Of a stretch of 64,000 nucleotides of DNA, positions 28,585 through 64,000 are shown piece by piece. Both the position numbers and the translations under genes were made by a program. Every line of letters starts with the position of its first letter. The stretch's first letter is position 1. The DNA comes from Fidelibacterota bacterium (lineage in GTDB: Bacteria > Fidelibacterota > UBA8477 > JABMPR01): the NCBI GenBank assembly GCA_016784025.1, contig JADHVL010000006.1, positions 13,859 to 77,858 of the forward strand. Reading direction: 5' to 3'. The notes beneath the pieces are model-generated. The model saw nothing but the letters and a program-made list of their open reading frames with translations. It was not told where the DNA came from and ran no database searches.

Positions 28585-31500
28585 ATGAGAAAAGCGAGTC
28601 TATTCCTTATCATGTTAGTCCTGGCATCCACTACCATGGCAGCAACCACCGGCAAAATTTCTGGAGAGGTGGTTGAGCAGACCACCGGTGAAGCCATGAT
28701 CGGCGTCAATATCATTGTTGAAGGAACCAGCCTTGGGGCGGTTACTGATATTACTGGTTATTACGTCATACTTAATGTTCCACCAGGATATCAAACTTTA
28801 AAAGCGACCATGATTGGCTATTCACAATACACCATTGAAGATATCCGCGTAGAAATAGATCGAACTCAAACCGTTAATATTGAAATGGCAGAACAGGTAC
28901 TTGAAGGTGAATCAGTTGTGATCGTCGCTGAACGCAAAGTAATAAAGATGGATGTGGCTGCCAGCCAGCGCAGTGTTACAGCTGAGGGGATAGAGGAGTT
29001 GCCAGTCACTAGTATTTCCGAAGTATTGACCCTTCAGGCTGGAGTGAGTGGTTTTTCTGTCAGGGGTGGTGGAACTGAAGAAACAGCTCTCATGATTGAT
29101 GGGATTGAGTTGAAAGATGAGAGAACCAATAAACCAATCACAGGCATTCCACTTAGCTCGGTACAAGAAATTTCGGTTCAAACCGGTGGCTTTAGTGCTG
29201 AATATGGAAACGTTCGATCTGGTGTGGTGAATGTAGTAACCAAGGACGGAAGTGGTGGTTACAGTGGAACCCTGACTATCAAGCATAGCGCCGCAGAACC
29301 AAAGCATTTCGGTATATCACCCTATGATGAAGACTCGTTCTATATGAGGCCCTATCTTGATGATGCCGTAGCCTGGACCGGTACTGAGGTTGGTGAAACC
29401 TATACTGACGCCAATAACAATGGATATTGGGATGAAGGCGAAACCTTTACCGATTTTAACGAAGATGGAGCATACACGGTCTGGGATAAATACACCCAAC
29501 GTCAATATCCTTCATTTGTGGGCTGGAATGCAGTTTCAGAAGCCACGCTGGCAAATGATGATCCCTCAGACGATTTAACACCCTCAGCGGCAAAAAGATT
29601 ATTTGAATGGCAGTATCGCAAACCTGGAAATATTGTCAATCCTGATATAAACATTGATGGTGGTTTTGGGGGACCAGTTCCAGTTATCGGTGAGGACCTG
29701 GGCAATTTGAGATTTTTTCTTTCCTATAGACAGGAGAACAGTGAATACCTCTATCCTGTCTCTGAAAGCGGAACCCTGTCCAGGACGACCTTGCTGAGAC
29801 TGACTTCTGATGTGGACAAAACCAAAAAATTAAACTTTACCTATATGGCTGGAAATCTTACTGCTACCACCTCATCCAGAGGTGGACTAACCAGTTATAT
29901 GTCCTCAGTATGGGATCTGGCATCACAGGTCAACCGTTCGGGTTTCACCATGCCCTGGAGATTGTACTCCAATGAATACTGGGCACCTACAGCCGTTTCA
30001 CATGCAACCTATTCTGCAAAATTCACGCACTTGCTCAGCTCTTCCTCCTATTATGAGATCATAGCAAAACACATAAAGAAACAATATGATACAGCTCCAG
30101 GTCCTGAGAGAAATCTAGACAAAGTCTATGAGATATTTGATGGTTATTTTGTGGATGAAGGTCCAGTAGGCTTCTATGGTACTCCTGTTAGTACTATCGA
30201 TGGTAATATGAATATGGGTGGTGCAGTAAGTACCTCCCGAGATCAGTCTGTGGTAAAAACCACTGCCATTAGTGGAGACTATGTAAATCAAGTAAACCAG
30301 AACAACCAAATCAAGGCTGGATTTGATTTTGTGTATGATGATCTGGAAATGGAATTTGGTTCATTGAACTACTTTTTACCTGAAGGAAATTATTGGTCGC
30401 GGATGTATTACACTCCATATCGATTTACCACCTACCTCCAGGATAAAATGGAGTTTGAGGGTTTTATCGCTTCCCTGGGTCTCAACGCCGAGCTTATCAG
30501 TCCCAATACCTCATGGTACAAGGTTGACCCCTATGATGAAAGTTTTTACTCCTCAAGCTATAGCCAGAGTGCAGAGGACAACTTTGAGAAAGAGGATGTG
30601 AAGACACGCTTTTACCTGAGTCCGCGCTTGGCAATCTCACATCCCATCACCATTAATTCAAAATTGTATTTCAACTATGGTCATTATCGACAAGTCCCAA
30701 CCACTGAAAGTCTATTTAGAGTGCAACGCAAGGTGGTTCTCAATGGCGATCGAGAAATCGAAGATCTCACCCAACTGTCAATTATTGGTGATCCTAATCT
30801 GGATCAAGCCAGGACCATTTCATATGAGTTGGGCTATGACCATGCCTTATTTGATGCCTATCTACTCCATCTTGCTGCTTACTATAAGGATATTACTGAT
30901 CAACAGGACTGGACCCGCTACATCAGTGCCAGCGGTCAGGTGAATTATAGCCACCTCACAGCAAACAGTTATGAGGATATCAGGGGGTTTGAAGCTGATA
31001 TATCCAAAATGGTGGGTGACTGGATTACTGGAAATGTAAACTTTGAATATCGCGTAAATACCTCAGGCTATTTTGGTGTAAAACAATATTATCAAAATCC
31101 CAGCGAGCAGAGGGACTATCTGAAAAACAATTCAGTACAGAGTAAGCCGCGACCGACCCCACGGGTTAAATCAGTGGTGGATTTTCACACTCCTCGCAAC
31201 TTTGGACCTACCATCTTCAGCCAAAAACCACTGGCCGAATGGCATCTTAATGTATTGAGCAGTTGGAGAGCCGGTTCCTGGTTTGAATACAATCCCAGAG
31301 GCATAGAAGGTATTGGTTACAATTTTAGATGGCAGGATTCAAAATCAGTGGATTTGAAGATATCCAAGATTTTCAAGGCAGGAAAAATGAGTATCAAGTT
31401 TTTTGCTGACATCAACAATGCCTTGAATCTTAAAATATTTAGTGGGTATGGTTTTGAAGATATTCATGACTATGACTTCTATTTAGGCTCCCTATTGCTT

Positions 31501-31851
31501 CCTCAAGACAAATTAGATGCCATCGGTGAACCCGTTTTCCCTGGTATTGAGCACAATGATAATCCAGGTGATGTGAGACCAGACGATGTCGCCTTTGTAC
31601 CCATTGAATGGATTGCTGATGTGGATAAGCTGTCTGCCGACGCACGGAGTGAGCGTGGTATTTATTATGATGCAGCCACTGAGACTTACCTGCAATTCAA
31701 TCACGTCGCTGGTTGGGAAGAAGTTGAATCGAGCTTTCTGGATGAAGTGGTTGAGAATAAGGCATATATCGATATGCCCAACCAGGGTTCGTTCATATTT
31801 CTTTCACCCCAGGACATCTTTTTGGGTCTAAATATTTCTTATGATTTCTAG
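28585..31851 (+). CDS. TonB-dependent receptor-like outer-membrane protein 1 (CarboxypepD_reg + Plug + large barrel; Oar/SusC-like architecture)
   Basis: 1088 aa with a signal peptide. 'GKISGEVVEQTTGEAMIGVNIIVEG...TDITGYYVILNVPPGYQTLKATMIGY' is CarboxypepD_reg-like. The TonB-box-like strand is 'ESVVIVAER'. Plug and early barrel: 'VRGGGTEETALMIDG', 'GGFSAEYGNVRSGVVNVVTK'. The C-terminal residue is F. Confidence 0.85.
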   Translation: MRKASLFLIMLVLASTTMAATTGKISGEVVEQTTGEAMIGVNIIVEGTSLGAVTDITGYYVILNVPPGYQTLKATMIGYSQYTIEDIRVEIDRTQTVNIEMAEQVLEGESVVIVAERKVIKMDVAASQRSVTAEGIEELPVTSISEVLTLQAGVSGFSVRGGGTEETALMIDGIELKDERTNKPITGIPLSSVQEISVQTGGFSAEYGNVRSGVVNVVTKDGSGGYSGTLTIKHSAAEPKHFGISPYDEDSFYMRPYLDDAVAWTGTEVGETYTDANNNGYWDEGETFTDFNEDGAYTVWDKYTQRQYPSFVGWNAVSEATLANDDPSDDLTPSAAKRLFEWQYRKPGNIVNPDINIDGGFGGPVPVIGEDLGNLRFFLSYRQENSEYLYPVSESGTLSRTTLLRLTSDVDKTKKLNFTYMAGNLTATTSSRGGLTSYMSSVWDLASQVNRSGFTMPWRLYSNEYWAPTAVSHATYSAKFTHLLSSSSYYEIIAKHIKKQYDTAPGPERNLDKVYEIFDGYFVDEGPVGFYGTPVSTIDGNMNMGGAVSTSRDQSVVKTTAISGDYVNQVNQNNQIKAGFDFVYDDLEMEFGSLNYFLPEGNYWSRMYYTPYRFTTYLQDKMEFEGFIASLGLNAELISPNTSWYKVDPYDESFYSSSYSQSAEDNFEKEDVKTRFYLSPRLAISHPITINSKLYFNYGHYRQVPTTESLFRVQRKVVLNGDREIEDLTQLSIIGDPNLDQARTISYELGYDHALFDAYLLHLAAYYKDITDQQDWTRYISASGQVNYSHLTANSYEDIRGFEADISKMVGDWITGNVNFEYRVNTSGYFGVKQYYQNPSEQRDYLKNNSVQSKPRPTPRVKSVVDFHTPRNFGPTIFSQKPLAEWHLNVLSSWRAGSWFEYNPRGIEGIGYNFRWQDSKSVDLKISKIFKAGKMSIKFFADINNALNLKIFSGYGFEDIHDYDFYLGSLLLPQDKLDAIGEPVFPGIEHNDNPGDVRPDDVAFVPIEWIADVDKLSADARSERGIYYDAATETYLQFNHVAGWEEVESSFLDEVVENKAYIDMPNQGSFIFLSPQDIFLGLNISYDF

Positions 31852-36036: not shown

Positions 36037-38979
36037 ATGTCTAATCAGATAAGGCGCGGAGTGTTATTACTGCTCATTTGTGTGAGCACAATAATTTCAG
36101 CAACCACAGGTAAGATTAGTGGTCATGTCACTGATTCAGAAACAGGTGACCCCCTGATTGGCGTAAATATTTTCATCTCTAATCTAGGTACTGGTGCCGC
36201 CACAGATATTGATGGCTATTATGCTATTCTAAACATCCGTCCAGGTAAGCATGAATTGCGCGCATCCATGATTGGTTACGCTCCTTTGGTTATGCAGAAT
36301 GTGGATGTGGTGATGGGACTCACATCAACCATCGATTTATCTATGTCCTCTGAAATTCTGGGCATGGAAGCGGTCACAGTTATCAGTGAGAGACCCATTG
36401 TTGCCAAGGATTTATCAGGGAGTCAGTTAAACGTGGATTCAGAGTCAATCCAACAATGGCCCATTTCCTCGGTTACTGCTGTACTGGGTGTCCAGGCCGG
36501 TGTTGAAAATATGCAGGTCAGGGGAGGCTCGATTTCCCAGACTGCGGTTATGGTTGATGGCTTCCTATCTAACGACAGTCGCTCAAATGCACCTGTGACA
36601 ACCTTGAGTTTGAGCTCTGTAGAAGAGATTCAGGTTCAATCCGGTGGATTCAATGCCGAGTATGGCAACATCCGGTCTGGTATTGTTAACATTGTGACAG
36701 CCGAGGGTCCAGCAGATCATTACTCAGGATCCTTCTACTATCAGAATAGTCCCGCTGCTCCCAAACACTATGGCATATCGCCTTTTGATGAGGATTCATA
36801 TTTTATGCGCCCCTATCTGGATGACGATGTTGCCTGGACTGGAACTGGAAGTGGTGGCTGGGATACATATACTCAAGATCAGTATCCAGGCTTTGAAGGT
36901 TGGAATTCATATAACAATACAGAAACTGGAATGACTGCATCGGCAGCACAACAGGAATGGATTTATGAACATCGCAGGACTGGTGAAATTACCAAACCAG
37001 ATCAAACACTGGACTTTGGTTTTGGTGGTCCTGCTCCTGGAATCTCAAAGCTTAGATTTTATCTATCCATAAGAAGTGAAGAAGAGCAATTTATTGTTCC
37101 CTTGTCCAGAGATGGATATAGCTCTAACTCCAGCCGTCTAAAATTGAATTATGATTTGAGCACCAATCAGAAGCTGGTTGCCACATTGCTTTATTCAGAA
37201 GAGCACTCAGTAAACCAATACAACTGGACCACAGTGCCTGAGGGCAATCTTTTACGTGGAACCTATAGTGTGGCTAATCTGGTGACACCAACAGGGTTAT
37301 TTACGCCTGCTTATTATAGCCCCTACTCAATATTCCGAGGACGATTTGATGTGAGTTATAACCATATGCTGAGTTCTGACTCCTATTATGAAATAGTCTT
37401 CCAACATGGGCAAACCCAATACCAGACTTATGAGATGGGTGCTCGAGACACCACGAAACTTGAAATATTTCCAGGCTATTTCCATGATGAAGCACCTTAT
37501 GGTTACAATTCTGCCGATTGGATGAACCTGGGACGGGATACCAGTCACACCAGCTCCACACTCCTGAAAGCAGACTATACCGACCAGATCAATTCAAGCA
37601 ATCAGCTCAAGATGGGGGTACAGGCCAATTTTTATGACCTGCAGATAAGATCCTACACCGAAAGTGATAAGGATACCTGGTCCAGGACCATGAACTATGA
37701 TGTAACTCCCATCAGGTTAAGTGCTTATGTTCAGGACAAACTTGAGTTTGAGGGATTCATTGCAAACCTGGGTCTTCGTGCAGAATATTCATCAGCCAAC
37801 ACCGATGTGTATGAACTGGATGCCTATGATGATCTTTTTAAACAAGGGCTGGGTAGTAATCTCGAGGAATTAGCAGAAAAACAAAATGCAAAATCCACAT
37901 TTACGCTAAGTCCAAGATTGGGAATTTCCCATCCCATAACCGATCATTCCAAATTGTATTTCAATTATGGACATTTTTACTCCGAAGCGGGTTCCACCTA
38001 CCGGTTCAGACTTCAGAGAGAATCCAACGGATTGGTCACCAATCTTGGTAACCCTGAACTGGAACAGGAGCGAACCATTGCCTATGAGTTGGGCTATTCA
38101 CATGGATTTAGTAACACATACATACTCGATTTAGCCACCTACTATAAAGACATTACACAACAACCGGGCTGGGTGATTTATAAGAATGCCACTGGCTCAG
38201 TCCACTATCGTAAGGCAGAAAGCAATAACTATCAGGATATTCGTGGTATTGAAGTCACGCTTAGTAAGCCCAAGGGTCGCATATTCTCAGGATTTATCAA
38301 TTATACCTATATGGTAAAGACCAGTGGCTATTTTGGACTGTTACGTCAGTTTCAGAATCCCCAGGAACAGCGAGATTATGAAAATCTCAACGTCGTGGAT
38401 AGCAAACCCAGAGCCCAACCCTATTTTCGTGCAAATCTTTCCATGAAAACTCCTCATAAATTTGGACCGTCTTTGGCTGGTATGCACCCCGCAGAAAGAT
38501 TTGAACTTAGTTTCCTGGCCAGCCACAAAACGGGAAGCCAATTTATTTATAATACTCCTGAGGCAGGGGATGTCTATGTCCAATGGTTGTCTCGATGGGA
38601 TGTGGATTTGCGTATTCAGAGATCCATTTCTGTAGGTGGTTCGTCTCTGGTGGCATTTTGTGATATTGCCAATCTCTTTGACCACAAATATTTGAGCTAT
38701 AGTGGCTTTTCAGATCAATTTGACTATGCTGATTATCTCACCTCTCTCAACTTTTCCTTCGAAGAGGGCATAAATCATGGGGATGATTATGTCGGTGCAT
38801 ATCGTGAAGATGATATAGCATATGAGGCTCTCGTGCCAAATCCTGATAATGATCCCCAAATTGCTGCAGACAATGAGCGCCGGCGGGAAACTAAATCATA
38901 CATCGATATGCCCAACTATCGATCTCTTACTTTCTTAAACCCCCGTAAATTCACTTTCGGGTTGAGGTTTAATTTCTGA
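36037..38979 (+). CDS. TonB-dependent receptor-like outer-membrane protein 2 (close paralog of receptor 1)
   Basis: 980 aa. 'GKISGHVTDSETGDPLIGVNIFIS', TonB-box-like 'EAVTVISER', and 'GGFNAEYGNIRSGIVNIVT...PKHYGISPFDEDSYFMRPYLDDDVAWTGT', which is collinear with receptor 1. It ends '...GLRFNF'. Confidence 0.85.
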   Translation: MSNQIRRGVLLLLICVSTIISATTGKISGHVTDSETGDPLIGVNIFISNLGTGAATDIDGYYAILNIRPGKHELRASMIGYAPLVMQNVDVVMGLTSTIDLSMSSEILGMEAVTVISERPIVAKDLSGSQLNVDSESIQQWPISSVTAVLGVQAGVENMQVRGGSISQTAVMVDGFLSNDSRSNAPVTTLSLSSVEEIQVQSGGFNAEYGNIRSGIVNIVTAEGPADHYSGSFYYQNSPAAPKHYGISPFDEDSYFMRPYLDDDVAWTGTGSGGWDTYTQDQYPGFEGWNSYNNTETGMTASAAQQEWIYEHRRTGEITKPDQTLDFGFGGPAPGISKLRFYLSIRSEEEQFIVPLSRDGYSSNSSRLKLNYDLSTNQKLVATLLYSEEHSVNQYNWTTVPEGNLLRGTYSVANLVTPTGLFTPAYYSPYSIFRGRFDVSYNHMLSSDSYYEIVFQHGQTQYQTYEMGARDTTKLEIFPGYFHDEAPYGYNSADWMNLGRDTSHTSSTLLKADYTDQINSSNQLKMGVQANFYDLQIRSYTESDKDTWSRTMNYDVTPIRLSAYVQDKLEFEGFIANLGLRAEYSSANTDVYELDAYDDLFKQGLGSNLEELAEKQNAKSTFTLSPRLGISHPITDHSKLYFNYGHFYSEAGSTYRFRLQRESNGLVTNLGNPELEQERTIAYELGYSHGFSNTYILDLATYYKDITQQPGWVIYKNATGSVHYRKAESNNYQDIRGIEVTLSKPKGRIFSGFINYTYMVKTSGYFGLLRQFQNPQEQRDYENLNVVDSKPRAQPYFRANLSMKTPHKFGPSLAGMHPAERFELSFLASHKTGSQFIYNTPEAGDVYVQWLSRWDVDLRIQRSISVGGSSLVAFCDIANLFDHKYLSYSGFSDQFDYADYLTSLNFSFEEGINHGDDYVGAYREDDIAYEALVPNPDNDPQIAADNERRRETKSYIDMPNYRSLTFLNPRKFTFGLRFNF

Positions 38980-52018: not shown

Positions 52019-55000
52019 ATGAGTTCAGTGCTGGTAAATCTTCGTAGAACCATCCTTAACGTATTGATCCTAGTCTTAATCACCACCAATCTATTAGCAG
52101 GAACTACTGGAAAAATATCCGGTCGAGTAATTGATGCTGAAACTGGTGAAGGTCTAATTGGGGTGAATGTTATCGTCGAAAATACTGGTATGGGAGCCTC
52201 CACTGATAGCGAGGGAATCTACTTCATCATTAATGTACCAGTGGGCATATTTTCAGTTCGTGCCGGAATGATTGGATATACGACCCAGCTTATGACCGAA
52301 GTTTCTGTTCGTGGCGATTTAACCACTGAAATAAATTTTAACATGACAGTCCAGGTTCTTGAATCTGATCAGGAAGTCATTGTTGTTGCTGAACGCCCAA
52401 TGGTTCAAAAGGATTTAACCTCAGGTCGATCTATTGTGAGTGCCTCTGAAATGGCTGAAATGCCAGTTGAATCTCTGGCTGGTGTGATTGGCACCAAAGC
52501 TGGAATCGTAAGTGATGCAGGAGGAGCGATTCATATTCGAGGGGGACGTTCCAGCGAAGTAACCTATATGATTGATGGTGTACCTGTCACAAATCTCTCT
52601 TCAGGTGGGCTTGGAGTGGGACTTGAGACTAGCGCTGTTCAGGAACTCCAGATTCTAAGTGGAACTTTTAATGCTGAATATGGTCAAGCCATGTCTGGAA
52701 TTATTAATATCATTACCAAGGAAGGTGGCGAAAAATATTCTGGTAATCTCAGCGCTTATATGGGCGACTACTATACCGAAAATACCCGCTTTTTTGAACA
52801 TGCCGATGAATTCGATCCCTCAAACATAAAAAATGTTGAATTGAGCCTGTCAGGACCTGTTCCTGGTTTTGGAAAAAATTTAAACTTTTTTGCAAACGGT
52901 CGTTATTACGATTATGGGGGCTTGTATCGAGGGGTGCAAGAGTATAGCCCCAATGATGTGAACTATCTAACATCCAAGGCTGTGGAAGAATTGCGTGATT
53001 CACCCTGGGGTCGGGCAGGATTATTAAATTTTGCAGAACCATTCACAGATTTGAATGAAGATGGACAGCTGGAACCTGGTAGCGAATCATATTTTGATTT
53101 TGATGGGAATGGCTCTTTTACACTGGGTGAACCTTTTAGAGACATCAATGGAGATGGCCGTTACAACCACAATATTGATTTTAACCAGAATGGATACATT
53201 GATTCTGAAGACTGGGAGTTTGTTGATTTAAATGGTGATGGCGTTCTCACTGGAGACCCCTTCGTCGATGCCAACCATAATGGCATTTTGGATGGGGAAC
53301 CTTATATAGACTTTAATGGTAATCATATGTGGGATAGTGGTGCTTCTGGTGACTCCAGTATAGTCAGGATGAATACCTCTACTCGTGTTAATGGGATGCT
53401 CAAATTGACCTGGCGTATCTCTCCTAAGATGAAGCTGAACACCAGCATTATCCATAATTCAGCTCAATCACAAAGCTATTCCATGACAAATGGATTTGCG
53501 TATAAGTATAATCCTTCCGGCAGACCTACAAATCAGTCAACTTCCACCTCCATAATCATGGATCTACGACATTCATTAAACGAAAGAATGTTTTATAACA
53601 TTAAAGGTTCTTTCTACCAAACCACTGCAAAAACTTTTTACATCGATGTGGATCCAGAAGAGTTAAGTGAAGAAAAATCATTCACCTATACCGATATTTC
53701 CCAATGGGCTGATTTTCTATCCGATGCTGTTGCTGATCCCGTTTCGGGAATTGGAATGGGAAGCTATTATGGATCAGTAAGTGATTCTCTGCTCATATTA
53801 AAAAGTGATATGACTGTTTCCTTTTATGACAGCCTTTCCATCGGCGGTGACATGTTTTATGTGGAGGACTTCTTTGGTCAGAATACCTGGACTTTGGGGA
53901 TTACAAATACCTGGGAAGAAATGAGTGCACCTTCATGGATTGAAGCACTGACAACCCCTGGAATCACAGAATGGGTGAAACAGATTCGTTTTGAATTCGT
54001 AATCAATGATCTTAAAAAGGCTTACTTCTTGCCAAATGAAATTTCTGAGCAGCCAGTAAACGAATATCTGGCTGGCGGTCATAGTCACAGCTACTCCCAA
54101 AGAATCAACCGTACTTATCTCATGAGTGGAGATTTAACCTGGCAGATAAATAATACCCATCAATTCAAGGGTGGAGTGGGTTTCAAGACTCACTCAATGG
54201 CGTATAAGGCTTATACAGTATTTGTTCAGAAAAATCTCGATTGGGTACCTACCATCAAAGACACTGAATCAAGTTTTTCCAATGACTCATATGACAACTG
54301 GTTAACTGATGCGGTCTCAAAATTGTCCCTCAATACTCGCACACCCCGTGAGGCCTATGTCTATCTCCAGGACAAAATCGAACTTACAGATATGATTGTG
54401 AACATTGGTTTGCGTTATGATTATTTCGATCCAAACTATTTTGTCCCCAGCGATTACCGCGATCCCGAGAATCCAAAATATTGGATGTATACGCTTGCCA
54501 GCTCTGATTCTGCAAGAATTGATACTTTTTTCCAATTTGCAGGAGAAGTAACCGCTTTTGATCAAATTTTAGATACCCTGGATGCCAACGGTGAACCATG
54601 GCGGGATTATAATGGTTTTTATGAAGACACTGAACCTGTGCATCAGTTCTCACCCAGGATCGGTGTGGCATATCCCATCACCGATAAAGGTATCATCCAC
54701 TTTAGTTATGGACACTTTTTCCAGATACCAACCTTCAGTTATCTCTATTCAAATCCTGAGATGGAAATCAGTACGGCCAGTAATGAATCTCGACTGGGAA
54801 ATGCCAATCTGAAACCACAAAAAACGGTTACTTACGAAATTGGCTTGCAGCAAGAGCTGACATCTGATTTGGGGATTGAGATTATAGCATTTTATAAGGA
54901 CTTCTCAGGCCTCCTCAGCTTAGACCAATATGAAAAGTACAATACTGTCAGTTATATGGTTTACTCCAACAGGGACTACGGTGATACCCGTGGTATAACC

Positions 55001-55582
55001 TTCTCCATCAATAAACGTCGGACAGGGCTGCTCTCTGCTTCAGCTGATTATACTTATCTGGTAGCTCAGGGAAATGCTTCCGATCCACTCGCACTATTTT
55101 ACGCCAATCAAAGTGATCCGCCAGCTGAGGTCATAAAACAGGTATTACCCCTGAATTGGGATCAAACCCATACCATAAATGTGAATATATCCCTCTCTGA
55201 GCCACAGAAGTGGGGAGTATCAATCCTCACCAAATATGGATCTGGTTTGCCCTATACACCTACCTATCAGGGGAGCTCGCTAGATGCACCCAACTCAGAT
55301 AGAAAACCTGATTATTTCAATGTTGATATAAATATGCACAAAGATGTGGTAATTGCTGGTCTGCATTGGACCGTATTTGCCAAAATATATAATGCGCTTA
55401 ACATCCAGAATGAGAGAAGTGTTTTCTCCGATACTGGACGAGCAACCTACTCGTTAATCCCAACCTACACACCCGACAATGGAAACATATACGGAAGACA
55501 CTCGCTAACAGACTATTTGACACGTCCCACATACTTTAGCAGTCCTCGTCAGTTCCGAATCGGTTTCTCAACAAGTTTCTAG
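52019..55582 (+). CDS. TonB-dependent receptor-like outer-membrane protein 3 (CarboxypepD_reg + Plug + barrel with large Ca-binding-repeat insertion)
   Basis: 1187 aa. 'GKISGRVIDAETGEGLIGVNVIVENTG', TonB-box-like 'QEVIVVAERP', 'IHIRGGRSSEVTYMIDG', 'GTFNAEYGQAMSGIINIITKEG'. The insertion holds about 6 D/N-x-D/N-x-D/N-G loops. It ends '...GFSTSF'. Confidence 0.85.
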   Translation: MSSVLVNLRRTILNVLILVLITTNLLAGTTGKISGRVIDAETGEGLIGVNVIVENTGMGASTDSEGIYFIINVPVGIFSVRAGMIGYTTQLMTEVSVRGDLTTEINFNMTVQVLESDQEVIVVAERPMVQKDLTSGRSIVSASEMAEMPVESLAGVIGTKAGIVSDAGGAIHIRGGRSSEVTYMIDGVPVTNLSSGGLGVGLETSAVQELQILSGTFNAEYGQAMSGIINIITKEGGEKYSGNLSAYMGDYYTENTRFFEHADEFDPSNIKNVELSLSGPVPGFGKNLNFFANGRYYDYGGLYRGVQEYSPNDVNYLTSKAVEELRDSPWGRAGLLNFAEPFTDLNEDGQLEPGSESYFDFDGNGSFTLGEPFRDINGDGRYNHNIDFNQNGYIDSEDWEFVDLNGDGVLTGDPFVDANHNGILDGEPYIDFNGNHMWDSGASGDSSIVRMNTSTRVNGMLKLTWRISPKMKLNTSIIHNSAQSQSYSMTNGFAYKYNPSGRPTNQSTSTSIIMDLRHSLNERMFYNIKGSFYQTTAKTFYIDVDPEELSEEKSFTYTDISQWADFLSDAVADPVSGIGMGSYYGSVSDSLLILKSDMTVSFYDSLSIGGDMFYVEDFFGQNTWTLGITNTWEEMSAPSWIEALTTPGITEWVKQIRFEFVINDLKKAYFLPNEISEQPVNEYLAGGHSHSYSQRINRTYLMSGDLTWQINNTHQFKGGVGFKTHSMAYKAYTVFVQKNLDWVPTIKDTESSFSNDSYDNWLTDAVSKLSLNTRTPREAYVYLQDKIELTDMIVNIGLRYDYFDPNYFVPSDYRDPENPKYWMYTLASSDSARIDTFFQFAGEVTAFDQILDTLDANGEPWRDYNGFYEDTEPVHQFSPRIGVAYPITDKGIIHFSYGHFFQIPTFSYLYSNPEMEISTASNESRLGNANLKPQKTVTYEIGLQQELTSDLGIEIIAFYKDFSGLLSLDQYEKYNTVSYMVYSNRDYGDTRGITFSINKRRTGLLSASADYTYLVAQGNASDPLALFYANQSDPPAEVIKQVLPLNWDQTHTINVNISLSEPQKWGVSILTKYGSGLPYTPTYQGSSLDAPNSDRKPDYFNVDINMHKDVVIAGLHWTVFAKIYNALNIQNERSVFSDTGRATYSLIPTYTPDNGNIYGRHSLTDYLTRPTYFSSPRQFRIGFSTSF

Positions 55583-55595
55583 GAAGGTGTTGAAT

Positions 55596-58500
55596 ATGAA
55601 GAAGAATATTACCTTATTGCTCGCCTTCATCACCTTCATTGGTGTGCTGAACGCAGGATCAAATACAAATAATCCAGTCCCCGAAAACAAACTTGATCGG
55701 GCGGCTTGGTTGAAATACTACAACACGCTAGATCGACGCAACCACATGTCGAAAGCGTCTGCTCTCAGCGATCGCAAGGCTGGTACCCATAACGGAAATC
55801 GTGTCCGAACCCTGTTTTATAATTATGGTTCTATTGGACGCCCCAACACCGAGCCTTCCATGGAATGGCCCATTGGTTCTGGTCGTGGCTATGCCTTTGA
55901 GTTTGGTGTCGTCGCAGGTGCAAGAATCACCACCCATGGTGGCACATCTGATATCATCGTTAGTGATGGTCTCACTGTAGCAGGTGTTACCTATGATAAT
56001 AGCGGATTTGATAATAATCCCGGTGATTGGCAACCCCTGCCGGGTCATCACGATCCCTTCCAGTCATCCATCGCCATGAGCACCACTATTGATGACAACC
56101 GTGATGGGAAACCGGATTCGTGGCCCAGCAAATGGTTCAATCCAGCCTTCAACGACTTTATGTGGCCAGGTGAGTACGGCCAGGGTGTGACGACGGCAGA
56201 TCAGGAATCCTACTATGTAATGGATGACTTCTATATTAAGAGTCACAACACATATTGGCCACAACAAGGCTGGTCAGATTCACTAAGGGATGATGAATTT
56301 TACCCATCTTTTCCCATTGATACGGTAAGAGGTGGATTGGGTCTCCAGGTTGAATCACGCGGTTACCAATGGATCGCCACGCGAGCGCAAAATGTGATCT
56401 TCTTTGTATATGAATTAGAGAACGTAGGAAATGACACGCTGGACAATATGTACTTCGGAATGTACGGTGATCCCCATGTTGGCGGGGCATCGGACTACAA
56501 TGATGATGATGCCTATTTCGATACCTTTATTGATATTGTCTACGGCTGGGACGATAATGCCATCGGTGATCCAGTATTTGGTAACACCGTTCCAGGCTTC
56601 TTTGGTTATAAGTTTCTTGAATCACCAGGTGAACCTCGCGATGGCATTGACAATGATGATGATGGGATGATTGATGAATCTATGCAGGACGGCATCGATA
56701 ATGATGGTGACTGGCGTCCCTATTCAGATTGGAACCTTAGTAGTGAATGGGAACCAGGTGAACCAGTCAATGATGATTTAGGTACCGATGGTGTAGGTCC
56801 AGATGATGCCCAGTACGTCGCTCCTGATGTAGATGGTACTGAGGCAAATGGATTGCCTGATCCAGGGGAACCCAATTTTGATGAAAAAGACCTTGATGAA
56901 GCGGATCAGATAGGATTGACCGGATTTATCGTGGATCAATATGACAACAGTACTGAGACTGAAGATTACTATTATTCCAGTCGTCTCACTGCTCCAATTG
57001 ATACGGCAGCTTTCCAGCAACGGGCAGACAATATCTTTATGTACAGTTCAGGTCCAATTAAAATGGGTCCTGGTGATGTCCGTCGTTTTTCAATTGCCAT
57101 GCTATTTGGTTATAATATCAACGCAGCCACAGGTGAATACCTGTACGAAGACCCTCATAATACAAGGGACCTCTATGCTACAGCTGAAATTATGCAGGAA
57201 ATTTATGATGCAGGCTATCGTTTTGTTAAACCACCGAATAAGCCGCGCGTAACAGCTATTCCCGGTGACGGTCAGGTCACACTATATTGGGATGATGGCG
57301 CCGAACTTTCAAGAGACCCCCTTTATGGCAAGGATTTTGAGGGATATGCCATTTACCGGGCCACTGATTTTGGCTTTAATGAATCTTTGAATATTACCGA
57401 TACATATGGGAGTCCATACCTCTGGAATCCAATAGCCAAATTTGATCTGGATAACGGCTTATCAGGCCCTCATGAAGTGGAGCAGATTAAAAATTCCGGG
57501 CTTCATTTCGATATGGGTGCTAATTCAGGTCTTGTACACAGCTTTGTGGATAAAAACCTGGTCAATGGTCAGCGATATTTTTATGCGCTCTGTGCTTATG
57601 ACTCAGGATCAGCTATCGATACGATTCCACCTACTGAGACATCCAAAACAATCCAGGAAGATTTTGCAGGAAATGTCACCCTTGATATAAATACAGCAGT
57701 TGTGACACCTCAGGCACCATCAATTGGATATCTGCCTCCACAAATCACTGCAGTAGATGGCAGCGACGAACTACCTGGTACTGGAACCATTGATTTTAAA
57801 ATCATTGATCCGACGCAAATTCCAGATGGAAGAACCCTGGAACTTCGCTTTCTTGATTCAGGAATGGATGAAATTGATAATGATGGTGATTGGGATTCCT
57901 ATGCTGACATGGATCAGATAAGGGACAATGGGATATACGTTGATATGATTATCCCGGCCAGCGAGGATAGCATTATCTATTCCAGTACTTTAACTGAAAG
58001 AGTTGTACTCGAGGGTCTTGTGGGTAACGTTTTTGAGCACAATGGATTTGAGTGGGAAATCAAGACCTGGCTGGAAGGACCTACAATTACAACTGATACA
58101 GTAATTATCTATCCAGATGCTTTTGAAATTGGCCCCACCATGGATGTCTGGAACCCAGCCATCGATGGCAGTGTAAATGATGATGTGGGCTCAGATGGCT
58201 GTTCTGATGAATATGAGCTTGGTGGTGGCAACTGCTCTGAGGCAATAGTGGCGTCTCCTGGTGATGATCCAAATGGTGATAATTGGGATCCATTGACTAA
58301 TCCAGATGGAACCGAAGCCAATGGCAAACCAAATGCAGGTGAGCCAGATGTGGATTTAAGAGATTTTCAGGAACTGGTGATGGAAACTGAATCCTTCTCA
58401 ATCGTTGATGTCACCGATCCAGCAAATGAAATCCCATTCGTTGATACTCAATACGGGATTCATGGAGAGGATTTTAATCAGATAAGCAATGGGATTCAAG

Positions 58501-60344
58501 TTTTTGTAGAAAATGATACTCTCCAGCTGGACTACAGTCGACTAGGGTGGTCATCTGGAGATTGTATCTGGTCTCCTAATGCCAGAGTATATAGTGGGGG
58601 AACACCTGGTATTGCAATGCCTCTTGATTACCGTCTCGAATTCTTTGAAACTGTGGTGGATACCTCACTGAGTCTGGGTGCCTGGACGAGAACTCAATTT
58701 CAAATGACCTACAAAATCACAGATGTCCAAACTGGTGAGCGCAGGAATGTAATTGTTACGAGTCCTCAGGATTCAACCTTGCAGCCAACCAGTAAAATCA
58801 CCCCATTTCAGTACACCAATGAAGAGCAGACAGGGGATGAGATTGGCAGTGATTTGCTACCAACATGGGAATTCACTTTTCAATCACCAATCTCAAAAAT
58901 TGAGAGTCTCTATCCTCTTGAGGATGGTGTGATGATAGGAACTGCGGGCGAAGGTCTGGCAATTTACAATCAGGATACCAAGGGTTGGAAGTTTTGGAAT
59001 TTCTCCAATTCAGGTGGTGGTCTATTGTCCAGTGTTGGGATTAAGGACATCGTTTACCATGAAGGCCACTATTGGGTGGCTACCAATCGGGGACCAGCTC
59101 TATACGATGGAGAGATATGGAAACACCATCTTCAATTAGAAACTGTTTTTGACGAATGGGAAGATGATAAGAATGCTACACTGGAGAATCCTGATAATAC
59201 CAAGGATTATGCTGCCTGTGTAGCCATTGATGTTGACAGTGAAGGTGCCATATGGTTGGGTTCTGATACTCATGGTCTGGTCAGGGTGAACACGCGTGGC
59301 ACTTATTTGACCAGTTTTGATGATATCATTGAATACTACCCTGGACCTGACTCCTTGTCTGATTATTTAGAATCTTTGGCCGATACAGACTTAAATGATA
59401 TCATGGTGGATGATGATCTCGTTTGGATTGCCACGAATAAGGGTGTTATTTCCTACAATTATGTTGACACAGTTTGGACTCACTATCCCAAAGACAATGT
59501 GAATGGGCTCCAGAATGATGATATCTACGCCATTGATAAGTTACCCGAATCTCAAGGTGGAAATCTTGTATTTGGTACTGCAAAGGGTGTGGCTTTCATG
59601 GTTGATGATGCCTTTGTTGTGTACACGAAATCTGATAGCACGATTCCTAATAACAAGGTATATAGCTTATTCAATCGTGACACCGATGAATACTACCTGG
59701 GAACAGGTACAGGTTATGCGGTAATGGATCTTTCAAATGCATCAAGTGATTTTACATCTGGAATCACATTTGAAATCTTTTCAGCCAGTTGGGGTGATGA
59801 AACTATCTATAGTGATAAGAATGTTAAAGCCATCAACTTTTCAGGCGATATAGGATATTTTGGTACAGAAATAGGTGTGGAACAAAGACTCTCTGCCACT
59901 GAGTGGAACACCTTTAGTCCCCAACCTGGTGATGTCTTGAATATTTACACCCGTAAGGAATTCAGCTCACGGGATATCTATAGATATGAGACTACTGCAG
60001 CAAAAGAGGATGCAGAAAAGGTTGCTAATGAGCTTGGAAAAGTTGCAGTGGTTCCAAATCCTTACGTAGCCGCTGCCATTTGGGAGCAAAAACCCTATCT
60101 ACAGTCAGGACGAGGAGAGCGTAAGATCTTTTTCATCAATCTCCCAACAGACTGTACAATTCGAATTTACACCATGGCTGGAGAGTTGGTAAAAAAATTG
60201 GAACACCATGAGACTGTTTATAACGGCGCTCAATCCTGGGATCTTCTAAATCTGGACAATCTGGAGGTTGCCTACGGTGTTTACATCTACCACGTTGAAA
60301 CCGATAATGCAGAAACTATCGGCAAATTTGCCGTGATTAAATAA
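55596..60344 (+). CDS. Giant T9SS-CTD partner protein B (family core + acidic Ca-binding repeats + FN3-like + 7-blade Reg_prop-type beta-propeller + CTD)
   Basis: The start is moved to ATG 55596 (MKKNITLLLAF..., AGGAAGG SD) from the track's GTG at 55587. The family core 'LGLQVESRGYQWIATRAQNVIFFVYELENVG' and 'SGPIKMGPGDVRRFSIAM' aligns with A1/A2. Acidic repeats include 'GIDNDDDGMIDESMQDGIDNDGDW'. FN3-like: 'GYAIYRATDFG'. The seven propeller blades are 'IGTAGEGLAIYN / WVATNRGPALYD / IWLGSDTHGLVRVN / VWIATNKGVISYN ...'. CTD: 'VAVVPNPY...CTIRIYTMAGELVKKL...YGVYIYHVETDN'. Confidence 0.7.
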   Translation: MKKNITLLLAFITFIGVLNAGSNTNNPVPENKLDRAAWLKYYNTLDRRNHMSKASALSDRKAGTHNGNRVRTLFYNYGSIGRPNTEPSMEWPIGSGRGYAFEFGVVAGARITTHGGTSDIIVSDGLTVAGVTYDNSGFDNNPGDWQPLPGHHDPFQSSIAMSTTIDDNRDGKPDSWPSKWFNPAFNDFMWPGEYGQGVTTADQESYYVMDDFYIKSHNTYWPQQGWSDSLRDDEFYPSFPIDTVRGGLGLQVESRGYQWIATRAQNVIFFVYELENVGNDTLDNMYFGMYGDPHVGGASDYNDDDAYFDTFIDIVYGWDDNAIGDPVFGNTVPGFFGYKFLESPGEPRDGIDNDDDGMIDESMQDGIDNDGDWRPYSDWNLSSEWEPGEPVNDDLGTDGVGPDDAQYVAPDVDGTEANGLPDPGEPNFDEKDLDEADQIGLTGFIVDQYDNSTETEDYYYSSRLTAPIDTAAFQQRADNIFMYSSGPIKMGPGDVRRFSIAMLFGYNINAATGEYLYEDPHNTRDLYATAEIMQEIYDAGYRFVKPPNKPRVTAIPGDGQVTLYWDDGAELSRDPLYGKDFEGYAIYRATDFGFNESLNITDTYGSPYLWNPIAKFDLDNGLSGPHEVEQIKNSGLHFDMGANSGLVHSFVDKNLVNGQRYFYALCAYDSGSAIDTIPPTETSKTIQEDFAGNVTLDINTAVVTPQAPSIGYLPPQITAVDGSDELPGTGTIDFKIIDPTQIPDGRTLELRFLDSGMDEIDNDGDWDSYADMDQIRDNGIYVDMIIPASEDSIIYSSTLTERVVLEGLVGNVFEHNGFEWEIKTWLEGPTITTDTVIIYPDAFEIGPTMDVWNPAIDGSVNDDVGSDGCSDEYELGGGNCSEAIVASPGDDPNGDNWDPLTNPDGTEANGKPNAGEPDVDLRDFQELVMETESFSIVDVTDPANEIPFVDTQYGIHGEDFNQISNGIQVFVENDTLQLDYSRLGWSSGDCIWSPNARVYSGGTPGIAMPLDYRLEFFETVVDTSLSLGAWTRTQFQMTYKITDVQTGERRNVIVTSPQDSTLQPTSKITPFQYTNEEQTGDEIGSDLLPTWEFTFQSPISKIESLYPLEDGVMIGTAGEGLAIYNQDTKGWKFWNFSNSGGGLLSSVGIKDIVYHEGHYWVATNRGPALYDGEIWKHHLQLETVFDEWEDDKNATLENPDNTKDYAACVAIDVDSEGAIWLGSDTHGLVRVNTRGTYLTSFDDIIEYYPGPDSLSDYLESLADTDLNDIMVDDDLVWIATNKGVISYNYVDTVWTHYPKDNVNGLQNDDIYAIDKLPESQGGNLVFGTAKGVAFMVDDAFVVYTKSDSTIPNNKVYSLFNRDTDEYYLGTGTGYAVMDLSNASSDFTSGITFEIFSASWGDETIYSDKNVKAINFSGDIGYFGTEIGVEQRLSATEWNTFSPQPGDVLNIYTRKEFSSRDIYRYETTAAKEDAEKVANELGKVAVVPNPYVAAAIWEQKPYLQSGRGERKIFFINLPTDCTIRIYTMAGELVKKLEHHETVYNGAQSWDLLNLDNLEVAYGVYIYHVETDNAETIGKFAVIK

Positions 60345-60355
60345 GGAGATTGACC

Positions 60356-61396
60356 ATGTATAAGAAAATGATCATGCTCCTTGTAATTGCAGTTTCAATG
60401 AGCTTTGGACAGTACAAAGGTGGTACAACTGCAGCACAATTCCTCAAAATAGGTATTGGTAGCCGTGCAACTGGTATGGGCGAGGCATATGTCGCTATGA
60501 GTCAGGATGCCTCTGGACTCTATTGGAATCCGGCTGGTATAGCCCAGGCTGGTGGTGGCGAAATCATGTTCCTCAGAAACAATTGGATTGCCGATGTAGC
60601 CATCAATTATCTGGGTGTCATTTTTCCGCTCTATGGTGTTGGAACCGTTGGCATTAGTATCACCTCATTAACAATGGATGATATGCCGGTTACTACTGAG
60701 CTGGAACCCAATGGAACTGGTGAGGAATTTACCGCCAGTGATTTAGCCTTGCAAGTGACCCTGGCAAGATCGCTTACGGATAGATTTTCCATTGGATTTA
60801 ACGGAAAATATATCCAGCAGACCATCTGGCATAGCCGTGCCAGTGCCATGGCGGTTGATGTGGGTACCTTGTTTAGAACCCAGTTTAATGATATGCGTCT
60901 CGGCATGAGCATCTCCAATTATGGATCAGGTATGAGAATGTCTGGCCGGGATATTCTTGAGCGCTATGACCCAGCACCTGGCTTTGAAGGCAACAACGAT
61001 GCTATTCCTGTAGACTATGCTCTGGATGATTGGGATTTACCCCTCATCTTCCGGGTTGGGGTAGCCATGGACGTGATTGAATTGGGTGTGACTAAGTTGA
61101 CGGTAGCGGTGGATGCCATTCATCCCAATGATAATTATGAATCTATCAACATTGGTACCGAACTGAGCGTGTTGGATAAATACTTTCTTAGAGGAGGTTG
61201 GAAATCACCTTTCGTAGAGACCAACACCAGCCTGGCAGCATCCGAGCTGGAAACTCGCGAGGAAGGCTTCACATTTGGTGCAGGATTTGATCTACCAATT
61301 TTTGGATCAGCTTCAGGGTTGAGATTTGATTATGCGTATGCCGATTTCGGGCGATTGAATAATGTGCAAAGATTTAATCTGAGTCTGTATTTTTAA
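60356..61396 (+). CDS. PorV/PorQ-like outer-membrane beta-barrel (copy 2)
   Basis: The start is moved to ATG 60356 (MYKKMIMLL..., AAGGAG SD 7 nt upstream) from the track's TTG at 60350. 'TAAQFLKIGIGSRATGMGEAYVAMSQDASGLYWNPAGIA'. The terminus is 'RFDYAYADFGRLNNVQRFNLSLYF'. Confidence 0.65.
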   Translation: MYKKMIMLLVIAVSMSFGQYKGGTTAAQFLKIGIGSRATGMGEAYVAMSQDASGLYWNPAGIAQAGGGEIMFLRNNWIADVAINYLGVIFPLYGVGTVGISITSLTMDDMPVTTELEPNGTGEEFTASDLALQVTLARSLTDRFSIGFNGKYIQQTIWHSRASAMAVDVGTLFRTQFNDMRLGMSISNYGSGMRMSGRDILERYDPAPGFEGNNDAIPVDYALDDWDLPLIFRVGVAMDVIELGVTKLTVAVDAIHPNDNYESINIGTELSVLDKYFLRGGWKSPFVETNTSLAASELETREEGFTFGAGFDLPIFGSASGLRFDYAYADFGRLNNVQRFNLSLYF

Positions 61397-61524: not shown

Positions 61525-64000
61525 ATGAAAAATCTATGTCGTATATCTCTGATTTTATTGATTGGGGCACAATTTCTCTTTTCAGGGACTTCAGGAAAAT
61601 TGACGGGTCGGGTGACCGATCAAAGTACAGGTGAAGCCCTTATTGGAGTAAATGTTTTTCTACCAGCCACCGGTCAGGGTGGCGCAACCGATTTAGATGG
61701 AAATTTCTACATACTGAACATCGCACCAGGTGAATATCAACTCCGCTGTTCCATGATTGGTTATTCAGAACAGGTCATCGACGGAATTCGGATAATGATT
61801 GATTTGACCACAACCCAGGATGTGCAGATGACGCTCAGCATTATTGAGGGAGACGTGGTCACCGTCACGGCAGACCGATCCATGATACAGGCTGATATTA
61901 CGCATGCACAGGCGAATATAAGTTCTGCCGAATTAGAAGCATTGCCTGTTGAGTCATTCCAGGCTGCAGTCTCACTACAGGCTGGTGTGGTTGTGGATGG
62001 TGCTGGAGCCATTCATATCAGGGGCGGACGCTCCTCTGAAGTCGCCTATTTGATCGATGGGATACCTGTGACCAACTCCTATGGTCAGAACATGGGTGTC
62101 GGCATCGAAAACAATGCGATTCAGGAACTTCAGGTCATTTCAGGAACATTTAATGCTGAATACGGCCAGGCCATGTCAGGTATTATCAATATTATTACCA
62201 AGGATGGAAGCTTGAGTGATTACTCTGGAGAGTTGAGCTACCGTTACGGTCGCTATATCTCAATGGATCCTGAAATATATCTTGGTATCATTCCAGGAGA
62301 TCTGGCTTTGAAAGATGATATCGATATTTCCAAGGTAGATATTTTCGGTACGAATCCAGATGTTTTTACACCCCAGGGCAGACATGATTTTCAATGGAGT
62401 ATGAGTGGTCCAGTACCAGGATTGTCAAAGAGTACGTCATTTTTCACCTCTGGAAGATATGAAGATTTAGCTGGTCGCCTGTATGGTGTACGACGTTTTA
62501 ATACAGATTCATTTTATTGGGATAACACCAATTCCATGCCCATCGAGAATGGTGAATACTTTTCTGACTATATTGATTATGGCGAGGATGGCTGTCCCGA
62601 TGAATATGAAAATGGGACAGGCGGCTGTGCCAGTGTACCCCTTAATCTTGGTGGTGACCCCAATGGAGACAATTGGGATTTCTATCTCAACCCCAACGGC
62701 GGAGAGGGCAATAATATCCGTGATGGAGGTGAATCGGGGAATGGTTTGTGGGATGGTGGCGATCGTGTATATCCGGTTGATCCTGATGTATATCTCGATA
62801 ATGCCACAGGTACCTGGTATCGTGATGTTGATGGAAATGGAGAATGGAACTCAGATGTAGATACAGATGTCGGTTTTCCACAATTCACCTATGAAGATGT
62901 CGATGGCAACGGAGCCTTGAGTGGGGAATGGTATTTTGATGGAGATCAAAACGGTGAATGGACCAATATGCGTGGTGACAACGCCGTGGTACCTCTCTAT
63001 AGCTCGAAGAGTCTTAATTTACAGGGCAAACTAACACACCGATTCTCACAACAATTGAAACTTTCTTTAAATGTCCTTTATGGAAGTTCCCAAACCTACA
63101 ACAGCAATGGCTTAAATTGGAAATATACTCCTGAGGGTCGAGCTACTTCCTATGGGACCAATATGAACATCGGTCTGGTGTTGCAGCATACCCTCAGCCC
63201 AGAGGCATTTTACAGTGTTAAAGCATCAATCCTGGGAAACTTTGGCCGATCCTATTATGAACCAATTTATGATGTAAACTGGAATCAGCTTTTTATGTCA
63301 AACATGTTCAATATCTCAGATTTTGACATGCCCGCTGATACTTCCTATGACACCAACAATCTGGAGGAATATGAGAATGACAATAACATTCTGGATGCCT
63401 CAATCGGTCAGAAATTTAATTTAGGTGGAATATCAAAATATCATCTTTATCGAATGACTCGCAGCCAGCTCATCAAATTTGATATGACCAATCAGGTAAA
63501 TAATATGCACCAGCTTCAGGGTGGTCTTGAATACAAATATACCAGCATTTTCCGTAGGGATTTTTCCATTATTTATGATCCTGCAGAAGGCTATTCCACC
63601 CCTCAAATCCTAACCCCAAATGTGAGTCCCTCAACACCAACTTACAGTGAGATGATTAAACATCCGTCTGAGTTTGCAGTCTATCTCCAGGATAAAATTG
63701 AAGTGGTTGATATGATTGTTAACGCAGGAATTCGATACGAAATATTTGATCCCGATGGTGTGACACCCTCAGATCCTGCAGATCCCAACCCCAGGTCTCC
63801 GCTAAAATTGATCAACAGATTCCATGATACAGATGGAGATGGTCAGATTTCAGAGGAAGAAGCAATAGATACCAATGCTAAAACCCTGGAAGATCGCATG
63901 GAGTACTGGTTCAAGGAAGCCTCAAAGAAGGTTCAGTTCAGCCCACGACTTGCTATGGCTTATCCCATCACAGATAAAGGTGTGTTGCATTTCTCCTATG
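61525..64000 (+). CDS. TonB-dependent receptor-like outer-membrane protein 4 (5' partial; runs off the window; absent from the ORF track)
   Basis: I translated frame 1 from ATG 61525 to 64000 by hand and found no stop. 'MKNLCRISLILLIGAQFLFSGTSGKLTGRVTDQSTGEALIGVNVFL', 'GDVVTVTADR', 'IHIRGGRSSEVAYLIDG' and 'GTFNAEYGQAMSGIINIITKDG' are collinear with receptor 3. The end '...FSPRLAMAYPITDKGVLHFSY' matches receptor 3 '...FSPRIGVAYPITDKGIIHFSY'. Confidence 0.85.
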   Translation, partial: MKNLCRISLILLIGAQFLFSGTSGKLTGRVTDQSTGEALIGVNVFLPATGQGGATDLDGNFYILNIAPGEYQLRCSMIGYSEQVIDGIRIMIDLTTTQDVQMTLSIIEGDVVTVTADRSMIQADITHAQANISSAELEALPVESFQAAVSLQAGVVVDGAGAIHIRGGRSSEVAYLIDGIPVTNSYGQNMGVGIENNAIQELQVISGTFNAEYGQAMSGIINIITKDGSLSDYSGELSYRYGRYISMDPEIYLGIIPGDLALKDDIDISKVDIFGTNPDVFTPQGRHDFQWSMSGPVPGLSKSTSFFTSGRYEDLAGRLYGVRRFNTDSFYWDNTNSMPIENGEYFSDYIDYGEDGCPDEYENGTGGCASVPLNLGGDPNGDNWDFYLNPNGGEGNNIRDGGESGNGLWDGGDRVYPVDPDVYLDNATGTWYRDVDGNGEWNSDVDTDVGFPQFTYEDVDGNGALSGEWYFDGDQNGEWTNMRGDNAVVPLYSSKSLNLQGKLTHRFSQQLKLSLNVLYGSSQTYNSNGLNWKYTPEGRATSYGTNMNIGLVLQHTLSPEAFYSVKASILGNFGRSYYEPIYDVNWNQLFMSNMFNISDFDMPADTSYDTNNLEEYENDNNILDASIGQKFNLGGISKYHLYRMTRSQLIKFDMTNQVNNMHQLQGGLEYKYTSIFRRDFSIIYDPAEGYSTPQILTPNVSPSTPTYSEMIKHPSEFAVYLQDKIEVVDMIVNAGIRYEIFDPDGVTPSDPADPNPRSPLKLINRFHDTDGDGQISEEEAIDTNAKTLEDRMEYWFKEASKKVQFSPRLAMAYPITDKGVLHFSY

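Follow-up and report, generated by a model that had tools for sequence, protein, structure and literature searches.

The window analysed here, a 64,000-nucleotide stretch of a Fidelibacterota genome (contig C47:13859-77858 of a 3.5-Mb genome), carries two adjacent outer-membrane cassettes on its + strand, cassettes 3 and 4, which share a short acidic module bracketed by two cysteines. The module is found in partner B, the large, probably T9SS-type (type IX secretion system) protein of cassette 3, and in barrel 4, the TonB-dependent transporter of cassette 4. Sequence comparison indicates that the two copies belong to a repeat family that is found mostly within one lineage, occurs in unrelated architectures and has no description in the databases, and structure prediction places the barrel copy within extracellular loop 2 (L2). 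We read it, with somewhat better than even confidence, as a general surface module with a predicted disulfide staple and a probable dependence on Ca2+, whose binding is predicted from its acidic residues; the homology, the family and the topology within this reading are near-certain. The copies in this genome are as follows.

58170..58376 (core 58179-58366), + strand: Cys module of partner B, amino acids (aa) 862-930, with Cys872 and Cys883; core translation DDVGSDGCSDEYELGGGNCSEAIVASPGDDPNGDNWDPLTNPDGTEANG...; independent E-value (i-E) with the profile 4e-34.
62563..62766, + strand: Cys module of barrel 4, aa 347-414, with Cys357 and Cys368; 62575-62720 translates to DYGEDGCPDEYENGTGGCASVPLNLGGDPNGDNWDFYLNPNGGEGNN.
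56766..56895, + strand: Cys-less early unit of partner B, translation VNDDLGTDGVGPDDAQYVAPDVDGTEANGLPDPGEPNFDEKDL, with the framework DDxGxDG ... DxDGTEANG-x-PDxGEPNFD.
L001:6069-6278, past the window end: Cys module of partner C, the partner protein of barrel 4, reading DDIGSDGCNDEFETGDPLNPCSEIELNLGDDPNQDNWNESTNPNGTQANARPDTGEPHFD.

Translation recovers the three peptides quoted in the sequence-only reading, namely both units of partner B and the barrel 4 copy, in frame and within long open reading frames (ORFs) at these positions. Searches of all ORFs of the genome with phmmer and with a three-copy hidden Markov model (HMM) find exactly three Cys copies, in partner B, barrel 4 and partner C, while barrel 3, the receptor of partner B itself, has none by this HMM or in an alignment of barrels 1-4. 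The earlier description of a module shared between a partner and the barrel of a different cassette is therefore right in that both proteins carry it and incomplete in that barrel 4's own partner carries it as well. Partner C follows the same plan as partner B, with one Cys unit in the middle of the protein and an early Cys-less unit.

When the two whole proteins are compared by composition-adjusted BLASTP, residues 866-919 of partner B align to residues 351-403 of barrel 4, with 28 of 54 positions identical and one gap (E=9e-12), this being the sole significant segment between the two proteins; the two modules aligned alone give E=2e-14. The pair reaches a Smith-Waterman score of 149, whereas 5000 shuffles that preserve composition score 38+-7 (z=15), none of them as high as the pair. 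The early Cys-less unit is recognisably related to the Cys copy of partner B (z=6, 0 of 5000 shuffles), is not significantly similar to the barrel 4 copy alone in the shuffle test (z=1.7) and scores merely i-E 0.1 with the three-copy HMM; judging from the repeats of the wider family, its kinship is better seen where Cys and Cys-less units are mixed within arrays. A profile of 23 copies and 68 positions (A1), searched against 1.84 billion cluster representatives, matches 122 protein clusters at E<=1e-3, of which 31 reach E<=1e-10, so the family recurs with significant matches and does not dissolve under an HMM search, as the earlier reading had considered possible.

The strongly biased composition of the module, together with the z-value of 1.7 between barrel 4 and the early unit, would suit a chance resemblance of Asp/Gly/Asn-rich low-complexity sequence. 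However, the composition-adjusted E-value and the absence of any shuffle at the observed score show that the similarity is not a D/G/N bias, the invariant positions recur in a fixed order that includes the two paired cysteines, and the rarity of profile matches, merely 122 among 1.84 billion, likewise speaks against low complexity. The low-complexity artefact was rejected on these grounds (BLASTP E-value, shuffles, profile rarity and cysteine pairing) and retains next to no probability, and the similarity noticed at first sight is true homology.

The unit is about 55-65 residues long and occurs singly or in tandem arrays. It has the form (F/Y)-x-D-x-G-x-D-G-[C-x-D-x-(Y/F)-E-D-G-x-G-G-C]-x(7-12)-D-P-N-G-D-N-(W/Y)-x4-N-P-x-G-T-E-G-N-x3-D-x-G-E, where the brackets enclose an optional hairpin of 12 residues. 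Split at the GTEGN anchor, the arrays read G-x-(Y/W)-D-x-GE-x-(F/Y)-x-D-x-G-x-DG, a linker or hairpin, and DPNGDN(Y/W)-x4-NP-x-GTEGN, with the two framework halves being separated either by a Cys-less linker (e.g. IPxxxEPGY) or by the hairpin C-x-D-E-Y-E-D-G-x-G-G-C. The acidic and Asn positions D5, D9, D13, E16, D33, D37, N38 and E58 are invariant in alignment A1. They are borne out on 243 unique copies aligned to the profile, where, in profile numbering, G7, D9 and E16 are invariant and D5, D32 and D36 near-invariant.

Both cysteines are present in 224 of these copies, neither in 18 and a single one in 1, counts which include related sequences. Of the 18 Cys-less copies, most place I, L or V at the first position, while the second is hydrophobic or gapped, and across all barrel and partner orthologues both cysteines are invariant. 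Because the cysteines come both or none, they fit two positions in contact, most simply a predicted disulfide. Comparison of the units further indicates that the hairpin is an optional insert (indel) in an older Cys-less unit. The translocon protein SprA of several Marinimicrobia and Latescibacterota has GEDxGLDGCxDEYEDGxGGCL...DPNxDNW...INGTEGN at a single site, and the genome's own SprA (C21:67542-74165; 591 bits) reads EDVGLDGID...DPNPES...INGTEGN at the aligned site, without the hairpin. The early and late units of partner B stand in the same hairpin-absent/hairpin-present relation.

Within the Marinimicrobia phylum, the profile has matches in 150 of the 301 genomes and in 69 of the 104 genera. 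The strictest two peptide patterns, run on the GTDB species representatives, hit almost exclusively Neomarinimicrobiota, the exceptions being a few Myxococcales/Deltaproteobacteria (esterase type), Latescibacterota (SprA-size ORFs) and one Anaerolineales contig; five of 101 Latescibacterota genomes match, always in an SprA-size ORF. The module is an outward-facing element on outer-membrane and T9SS proteins of Marinimicrobia and is sporadic in Latescibacterota and Myxococcota.

The carriers are diverse. SprA/Sov translocons carry it in four independent clusters (TIGR04189 at 674 bits; SprA_N). A PorV-family barrel of 1111 aa (P0047; NF033709, 216 bits) has an insertion of ~670 residues near its N-terminus (aa ~60-730) with ten to eleven profile-matched, mostly Cys-less units, which makes it an unusually decorated T9SS shuttle protein. 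Further carriers are lipoprotein-like proteins of ~1000 aa in which three or four units stand in tandem, T9SS cargo proteins that have PKD domains as well as sorting tails (C-terminal domain, CTD), and esterase-domain lipoproteins of ~700-820 aa.

Some details of these carriers may be added. In the SprA-size proteins (L017:856-7689, L053, L055, L058, L059, L063, L064 and L018) the module occupies one conserved site at about aa 950-1060, in Marinimicrobia and some Latescibacterota, and the SprA framework near this site reads INGTEGN...YPDTEDLN. The esterase carriers (L048, L049 and L050 from Deltaproteobacteria/Myxococcales; P0059 and P0064; ~20 similar clusters) are GC-rich and match PF00756, with a single Cys module at about aa 320-420 and NGxRDYGEP units on either side; their module is either an ancient shared domain or an inter-phylum transfer. 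A 402-aa protein with a weak tetratricopeptide repeat (TPR) match (L015:7039-8244; G224 C28) has one Cys module and lies between two T9SS CTD proteins, one of 1706 aa and one of 1229 aa that has a dockerin-like match. Several 'binchicken' metagenome-assembled genomes labelled 'uncultured Lentisphaeria bacterium' (L022, L026, L030, L031, L033, L034 and L036) contain cassettes 50-80% identical to those described here in the same gene order, and their Lentisphaeria label looks wrong.

For barrel 4, the copy falls into the following features of the second long loop.

62473..62997, + strand: barrel 4, aa 317-491, the entire extracellular loop L2, flanked by strands 3 and 4 (AlphaFold2 (AF2) model m2d9bc604302b).
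62521..62922, + strand: lineage-specific insertion of barrel 4, aa 333-466 (134 aa), with the Cys module followed by DxDGNG-type loops.
62815..62970, + strand: EF-hand-like DxDGNG array of barrel 4, aa 431-482, in L2 after the module; conservation 0.54.

Barrel 4 is a TonB-dependent transporter by its Pfam Plug match (E=3.7e-10), by PF00593 on its orthologues and by its predicted structure. The final AF2 model, covering residues 113-1115 and built with 122 sequences, has a plug, which ends at about aa 231, and 22 strands, with a mean predicted local distance difference test score (pLDDT) of 78 and a predicted TM-score (pTM) of 0.76. The solved TonB-dependent transporters that Foldseek matches to the model include PqqU, FepA, FusA and Ca-bound BtuB (PDB ID 1NQG), with E-values of 1e-27 to 1e-23 and target TM-scores (TMt) of 0.64-0.80; in a PDB sequence search with the barrel profile, matches are confined to the plug. 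Strands 1 to 4 span residues 234-245, 286-296, 304-316 and 492-506, the periplasmic turns at 297-303 and 507-510 are short, and short turns and long loops alternate up to the C-terminal strand. Since the loops between an odd and the next even strand face outside in TonB-dependent transporters, this strand parity makes residues 317-491 the extracellular L2, with the module at aa 347-414 inside it according to the model. The suggestion that the barrel copy sits in an extracellular loop is thus supported by the model, as L2 lies between strands 3 and 4 and the copy is on neither the plug nor the periplasmic side.

Among 94 homologues of 900-1000 aa, occupancy of the insertion is 0 at nearly all positions and about 0.9-1.0 at aa 376-379 only; in the short homologues the corresponding loop has ~15-25 residues. 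Barrel 3 has a comparable DxDGNG/EF-hand-like array in the same loop 2 (53041-53345) without the Cys module, as seen in the alignment of barrels 1-4. In the barrel 4 model the module itself has a pLDDT of 34-56 and no regular secondary structure, while the DxDGNG region after it (about 412-452) is better defined (pLDDT 67-84). The AF2 models contain no ions, and the low values in the module could weakly hint at an ion-dependent fold. An earlier AF2 model of full-length barrel 4 with 24 sequences (pLDDT 52, plug ~30) was too poor for placing the insert and was discarded; fragments of the partner module added to the barrel alignment were misplaced by MAFFT and were dropped, with the module confidence staying low. 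The barrel family as a whole (CarboxypepD_reg, plug and barrel) is very large, with 3846 matches at E<=1e-10 among 8000 candidates scored. Its members are mostly 900-1000 aa long, several also match PF25183, and the named sources are Marinimicrobia, Fidelibacterota, KSB1, Zhuqueibacterota, Delongbacteria and other FCB-group (Fibrobacterota, Chlorobiota, Bacteroidota) bacteria.

Both cysteines of the barrel copy are retained throughout 22 orthologue clusters of barrel 4, whose inserts are 52-96% identical, and also in the four clusters P0166-P0169, which are more distant; the partner B copy keeps both in 18 orthologue clusters. The early Cys-less unit is likewise conserved in partner B orthologues, with a mean pairwise identity of 0.79. 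In the survey of the 301 phylum genomes, relatives within the genus, the family and the order typically have three matches together on one contig, in a ~1600-aa ORF, a ~1119-aa ORF ~4.4 kb further on and a ~1623-aa ORF another ~5 kb further. This is the arrangement of partner B, barrel 4 and partner C, and it holds across the order.

A tree of 106 module copies over 69 columns, weakly resolved overall, joins the barrel-4 copies in one clade (Shimodaira-Hasegawa-like approximate likelihood ratio test (SH-aLRT) 97). Beside this clade (SH-aLRT 83) stands a group that unites the copies of partners B and C with five of the seven from SprA-size ORFs, with the array copies, the esterase copies and the other two SprA-size copies on the opposite side. 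Because the barrel copies form a single old clade, the tree points to one ancient insertion and not to recent exchange, which fits one old loop 2 insertion in the ancestor of the barrel-4 clade; the inserted unit, by its position in the tree, probably came from the same lineage. A recent shuffling from partner B to barrel 4 was considered and is ruled out by this clade, and the picture of a module shuffled between partner and barrel in the sequence-only reading is not supported in that form.

As to how the module might work, a single ancient event would have put one Cys unit and its DxDGNG loops into loop 2 of barrel 4, lengthening it by ~134 residues. The side chains of the invariant Asp, Glu and Asn positions would wrap Ca2+, an ion abundant in seawater, and the disulfide would staple the hairpin. 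A segment without a core would in this way turn rigid only outside the cell, similar to a thrombospondin type-3 (TSP3) repeat, and its role would be structural or one of general surface contact.

Several observations weigh against this reading. No calcium-binding Pfam family matches the module, and its motifs merely approximate DxDxDG/EF-hand loops, the fourth and sixth residues of DPNGDN being G and N. The confidence of the module is low in both AF2 models, and the related sequences among the aligned copies inflate the cysteine pairing figure. In the barrels the module is about as conserved as the average of the protein (mean pairwise identity 0.72, whole protein 0.76), and in partner B it exceeds the flanking 100 residues by no more than a moderate margin (0.72 vs 0.55-0.59). 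Finally, a general surface element is the default reading that we infer from the distribution.

The same distribution bears on the more specific roles that can be imagined for the pair. In a docking arrangement, the L2 module of barrel 4 would contact the module of its partner, directly or through Ca2+, and hold partner C, possibly also partner B, in the style of SusD on SusC. In favour of this, both copies are extracellular, the module is present in barrel 4 as well as in partner C, whose genes overlap by 4 nucleotides (nt), each module-bearing barrel-4 orthologue seen adjoins a module-bearing partner, and in the tree the copies from barrels fall, with weak support (SH-aLRT 83), together with those of the partners and SprA rather than those of arrays and esterases. 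However, in three genomes with cassette 3 alone partner B keeps its module and no barrel has one, in the more distant L014 cassette the module is present in the 1412-aa partner only, and SprA, PorV, the esterase lipoproteins and the long arrays carry it where no such pair exists. This distribution leans against a private barrel-partner interface, and we consider specific docking unlikely. A broader version, in which the module would be a common Ca2+-bridged docking code, with units on T9SS-exported proteins binding units on barrels (TonB receptor loop 2, SprA and PorV), would mean that secreted proteins are tethered to specific barrels without a lipid or lipopolysaccharide (LPS) anchor; we regard it as improbable.

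Alternatively, the acidic Cys module could be a shared ligand element that captures the same substrate or cofactor on the partner and at the barrel entrance, forming a hand-over path. Candidates would be a nutrient that is cationic or metal-bound, or else a polysaccharide held through Ca2+. Its place in an extracellular loop of a transporter, the precedent of BtuB with its calcium-bound structures (1NQG/1NQH) and the conservation of the partner B module above its flanks would agree with this. That SprA, PorV and the esterase-like proteins of other phyla carry the module too speaks against a single substrate; the module is also missing from barrel 3 and from most cassette barrels, and no ligand-related family matches it. 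A common ligand is about as doubtful as specific docking, and the general surface module, probably Ca2+-dependent and disulfide-stapled, is the reading that we carry forward.

The genes of the two cassettes and the barrels used for comparison are listed below.

52019..55582, + strand: barrel 3, 1187 aa, with CarboxypepD_reg, Plug and TonB-dependent barrel; partner B's own receptor, without the Cys module.
55587..60344, + strand: partner B, 1585 aa, with signal peptide, acidic arrays, propeller-like repeats and a putative T9SS-type C-terminal domain.
60350..61396, + strand: PorV/PorQ-family barrel of cassette 3 (NF033709, 203 bits vs a cut-off of 90), adjoining partner B.
61525..64000, + strand, continuing past the window end: barrel 4, full protein 1115 aa (C47:75383-78730), with CarboxypepD_reg, plug and a 22-strand barrel.
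C47:78727-83529 (L001:3345-8147), past the window end: partner C, 1600 aa, paralogous to partner B and the partner protein of barrel 4.
L001:8157-9197: PorV-like gene after partner C.
28585-31851 and 36037-38979: barrels 1 and 2, with a short loop where barrel 4 has its L2 insertion.

The start of partner C overlaps the stop of barrel 4 by the 4 nt mentioned above, which suggests that the two genes are translationally coupled. Partner B, for which a Pfam scan of the protein finds no family, was read as secreted, and it has a signal peptide and is probably a T9SS-type protein; its tail matches TIGR04183 (Por_Secre_tail) weakly, at E=6.4e-4 and 19.7 bits, below the cut-off of 23. By BLAST, this tail is homologous to the tails of the 700-aa partners of cassettes 1 and 2. 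The C-terminal tail being the sole match in the BLAST comparison of partner B with these proteins, the module lies outside any shared partner core.

Marinimicrobia (SAR406) are abundant, uncultured bacteria of the ocean, and their surface is dominated by TonB-dependent receptors and by T9SS cargo of unknown families. A recurrent domain that is absent from the databases can now be placed on loop 2 of a transporter, on SprA and on PorV. The new profile provides an annotation handle for Marinimicrobia surface proteins, and the module can serve as a marker of the outward-facing parts of giant proteins. If it should mediate contacts between barrels and partners, it would also bear on the assembly of SusD-less receptor cassettes in FCB-group bacteria. 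What is new is an undescribed domain family; its general kind is already known, and there is no evidence of a new mechanism.

Searches of known families return nothing for the module. Even at E<=10, Pfam has no match for the module, the whole L2 insert or two arrays, NCBIfam scans of module, insert and arrays find none, and no PDB sequence matches the module profile; in the literature we found no description of this repeat or of the cassette in Marinimicrobia. In its genomic context the system resembles the SusC/SusD pairs of Bacteroidota (RagAB, BtuBG), where the gene of a TonB-dependent barrel also adjoins that of a large surface partner, but the partner protein here, probably of T9SS type, belongs to no known family and is not a SusD-like TPR lipoprotein, and we know of no module of this sort in the loops of SusC proteins.

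A positional analogy exists to BtuB of E. coli, where calcium orders the extracellular loops (the 'aspartate cage') and raises the affinity for B12. The structures 1NQG and 1NQH show BtuB with bound calcium, alone and with cyanocobalamin. Like barrel 4, BtuB is a 22-strand TonB-dependent transporter with acidic residues in one of its early extracellular loops. However, the loops of BtuB are short, with few Asp and without cysteines or a repeat, whereas barrel 4 has an insertion of 134 aa with a predicted disulfide hairpin, and no homology of the loops is claimed.

EF-hands and dockerins share with the DxDGNG array in L2 of barrel 4, and partly with DPNGDN, a D/N-x-D/N-x-D-G-like spacing, and dockerin-like matches occur on surface proteins of the same cassettes. 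The Cys module differs in matching neither family and, as judged by eye from the motif, in lacking the flanking helices and the geometry of a Glu at position 12. The closest likeness in kind is to the TSP3 repeat, in which disulfides staple a 'wire' wound about Ca2+; it is known in eukaryotic TSP_3 and bacterial OmpA-family versions. Both consist of Asp-rich, Cys-bracketed short units in tandem, are extracellular and are without a hydrophobic core or regular secondary structure. The TSP3 motif is DxDxDGxxDxxD, whereas the module combines DGC-x10-C, DPNGDN(W/Y) and NPxGTEGN in a unit of ~55-65 aa that has no profile match in the Pfam search above and whose Ca2+ binding is a prediction. Since it fails the profile tests for TSP3, EF-hand and dockerin, the module is not a member of these families, but by analogy it may work like them.

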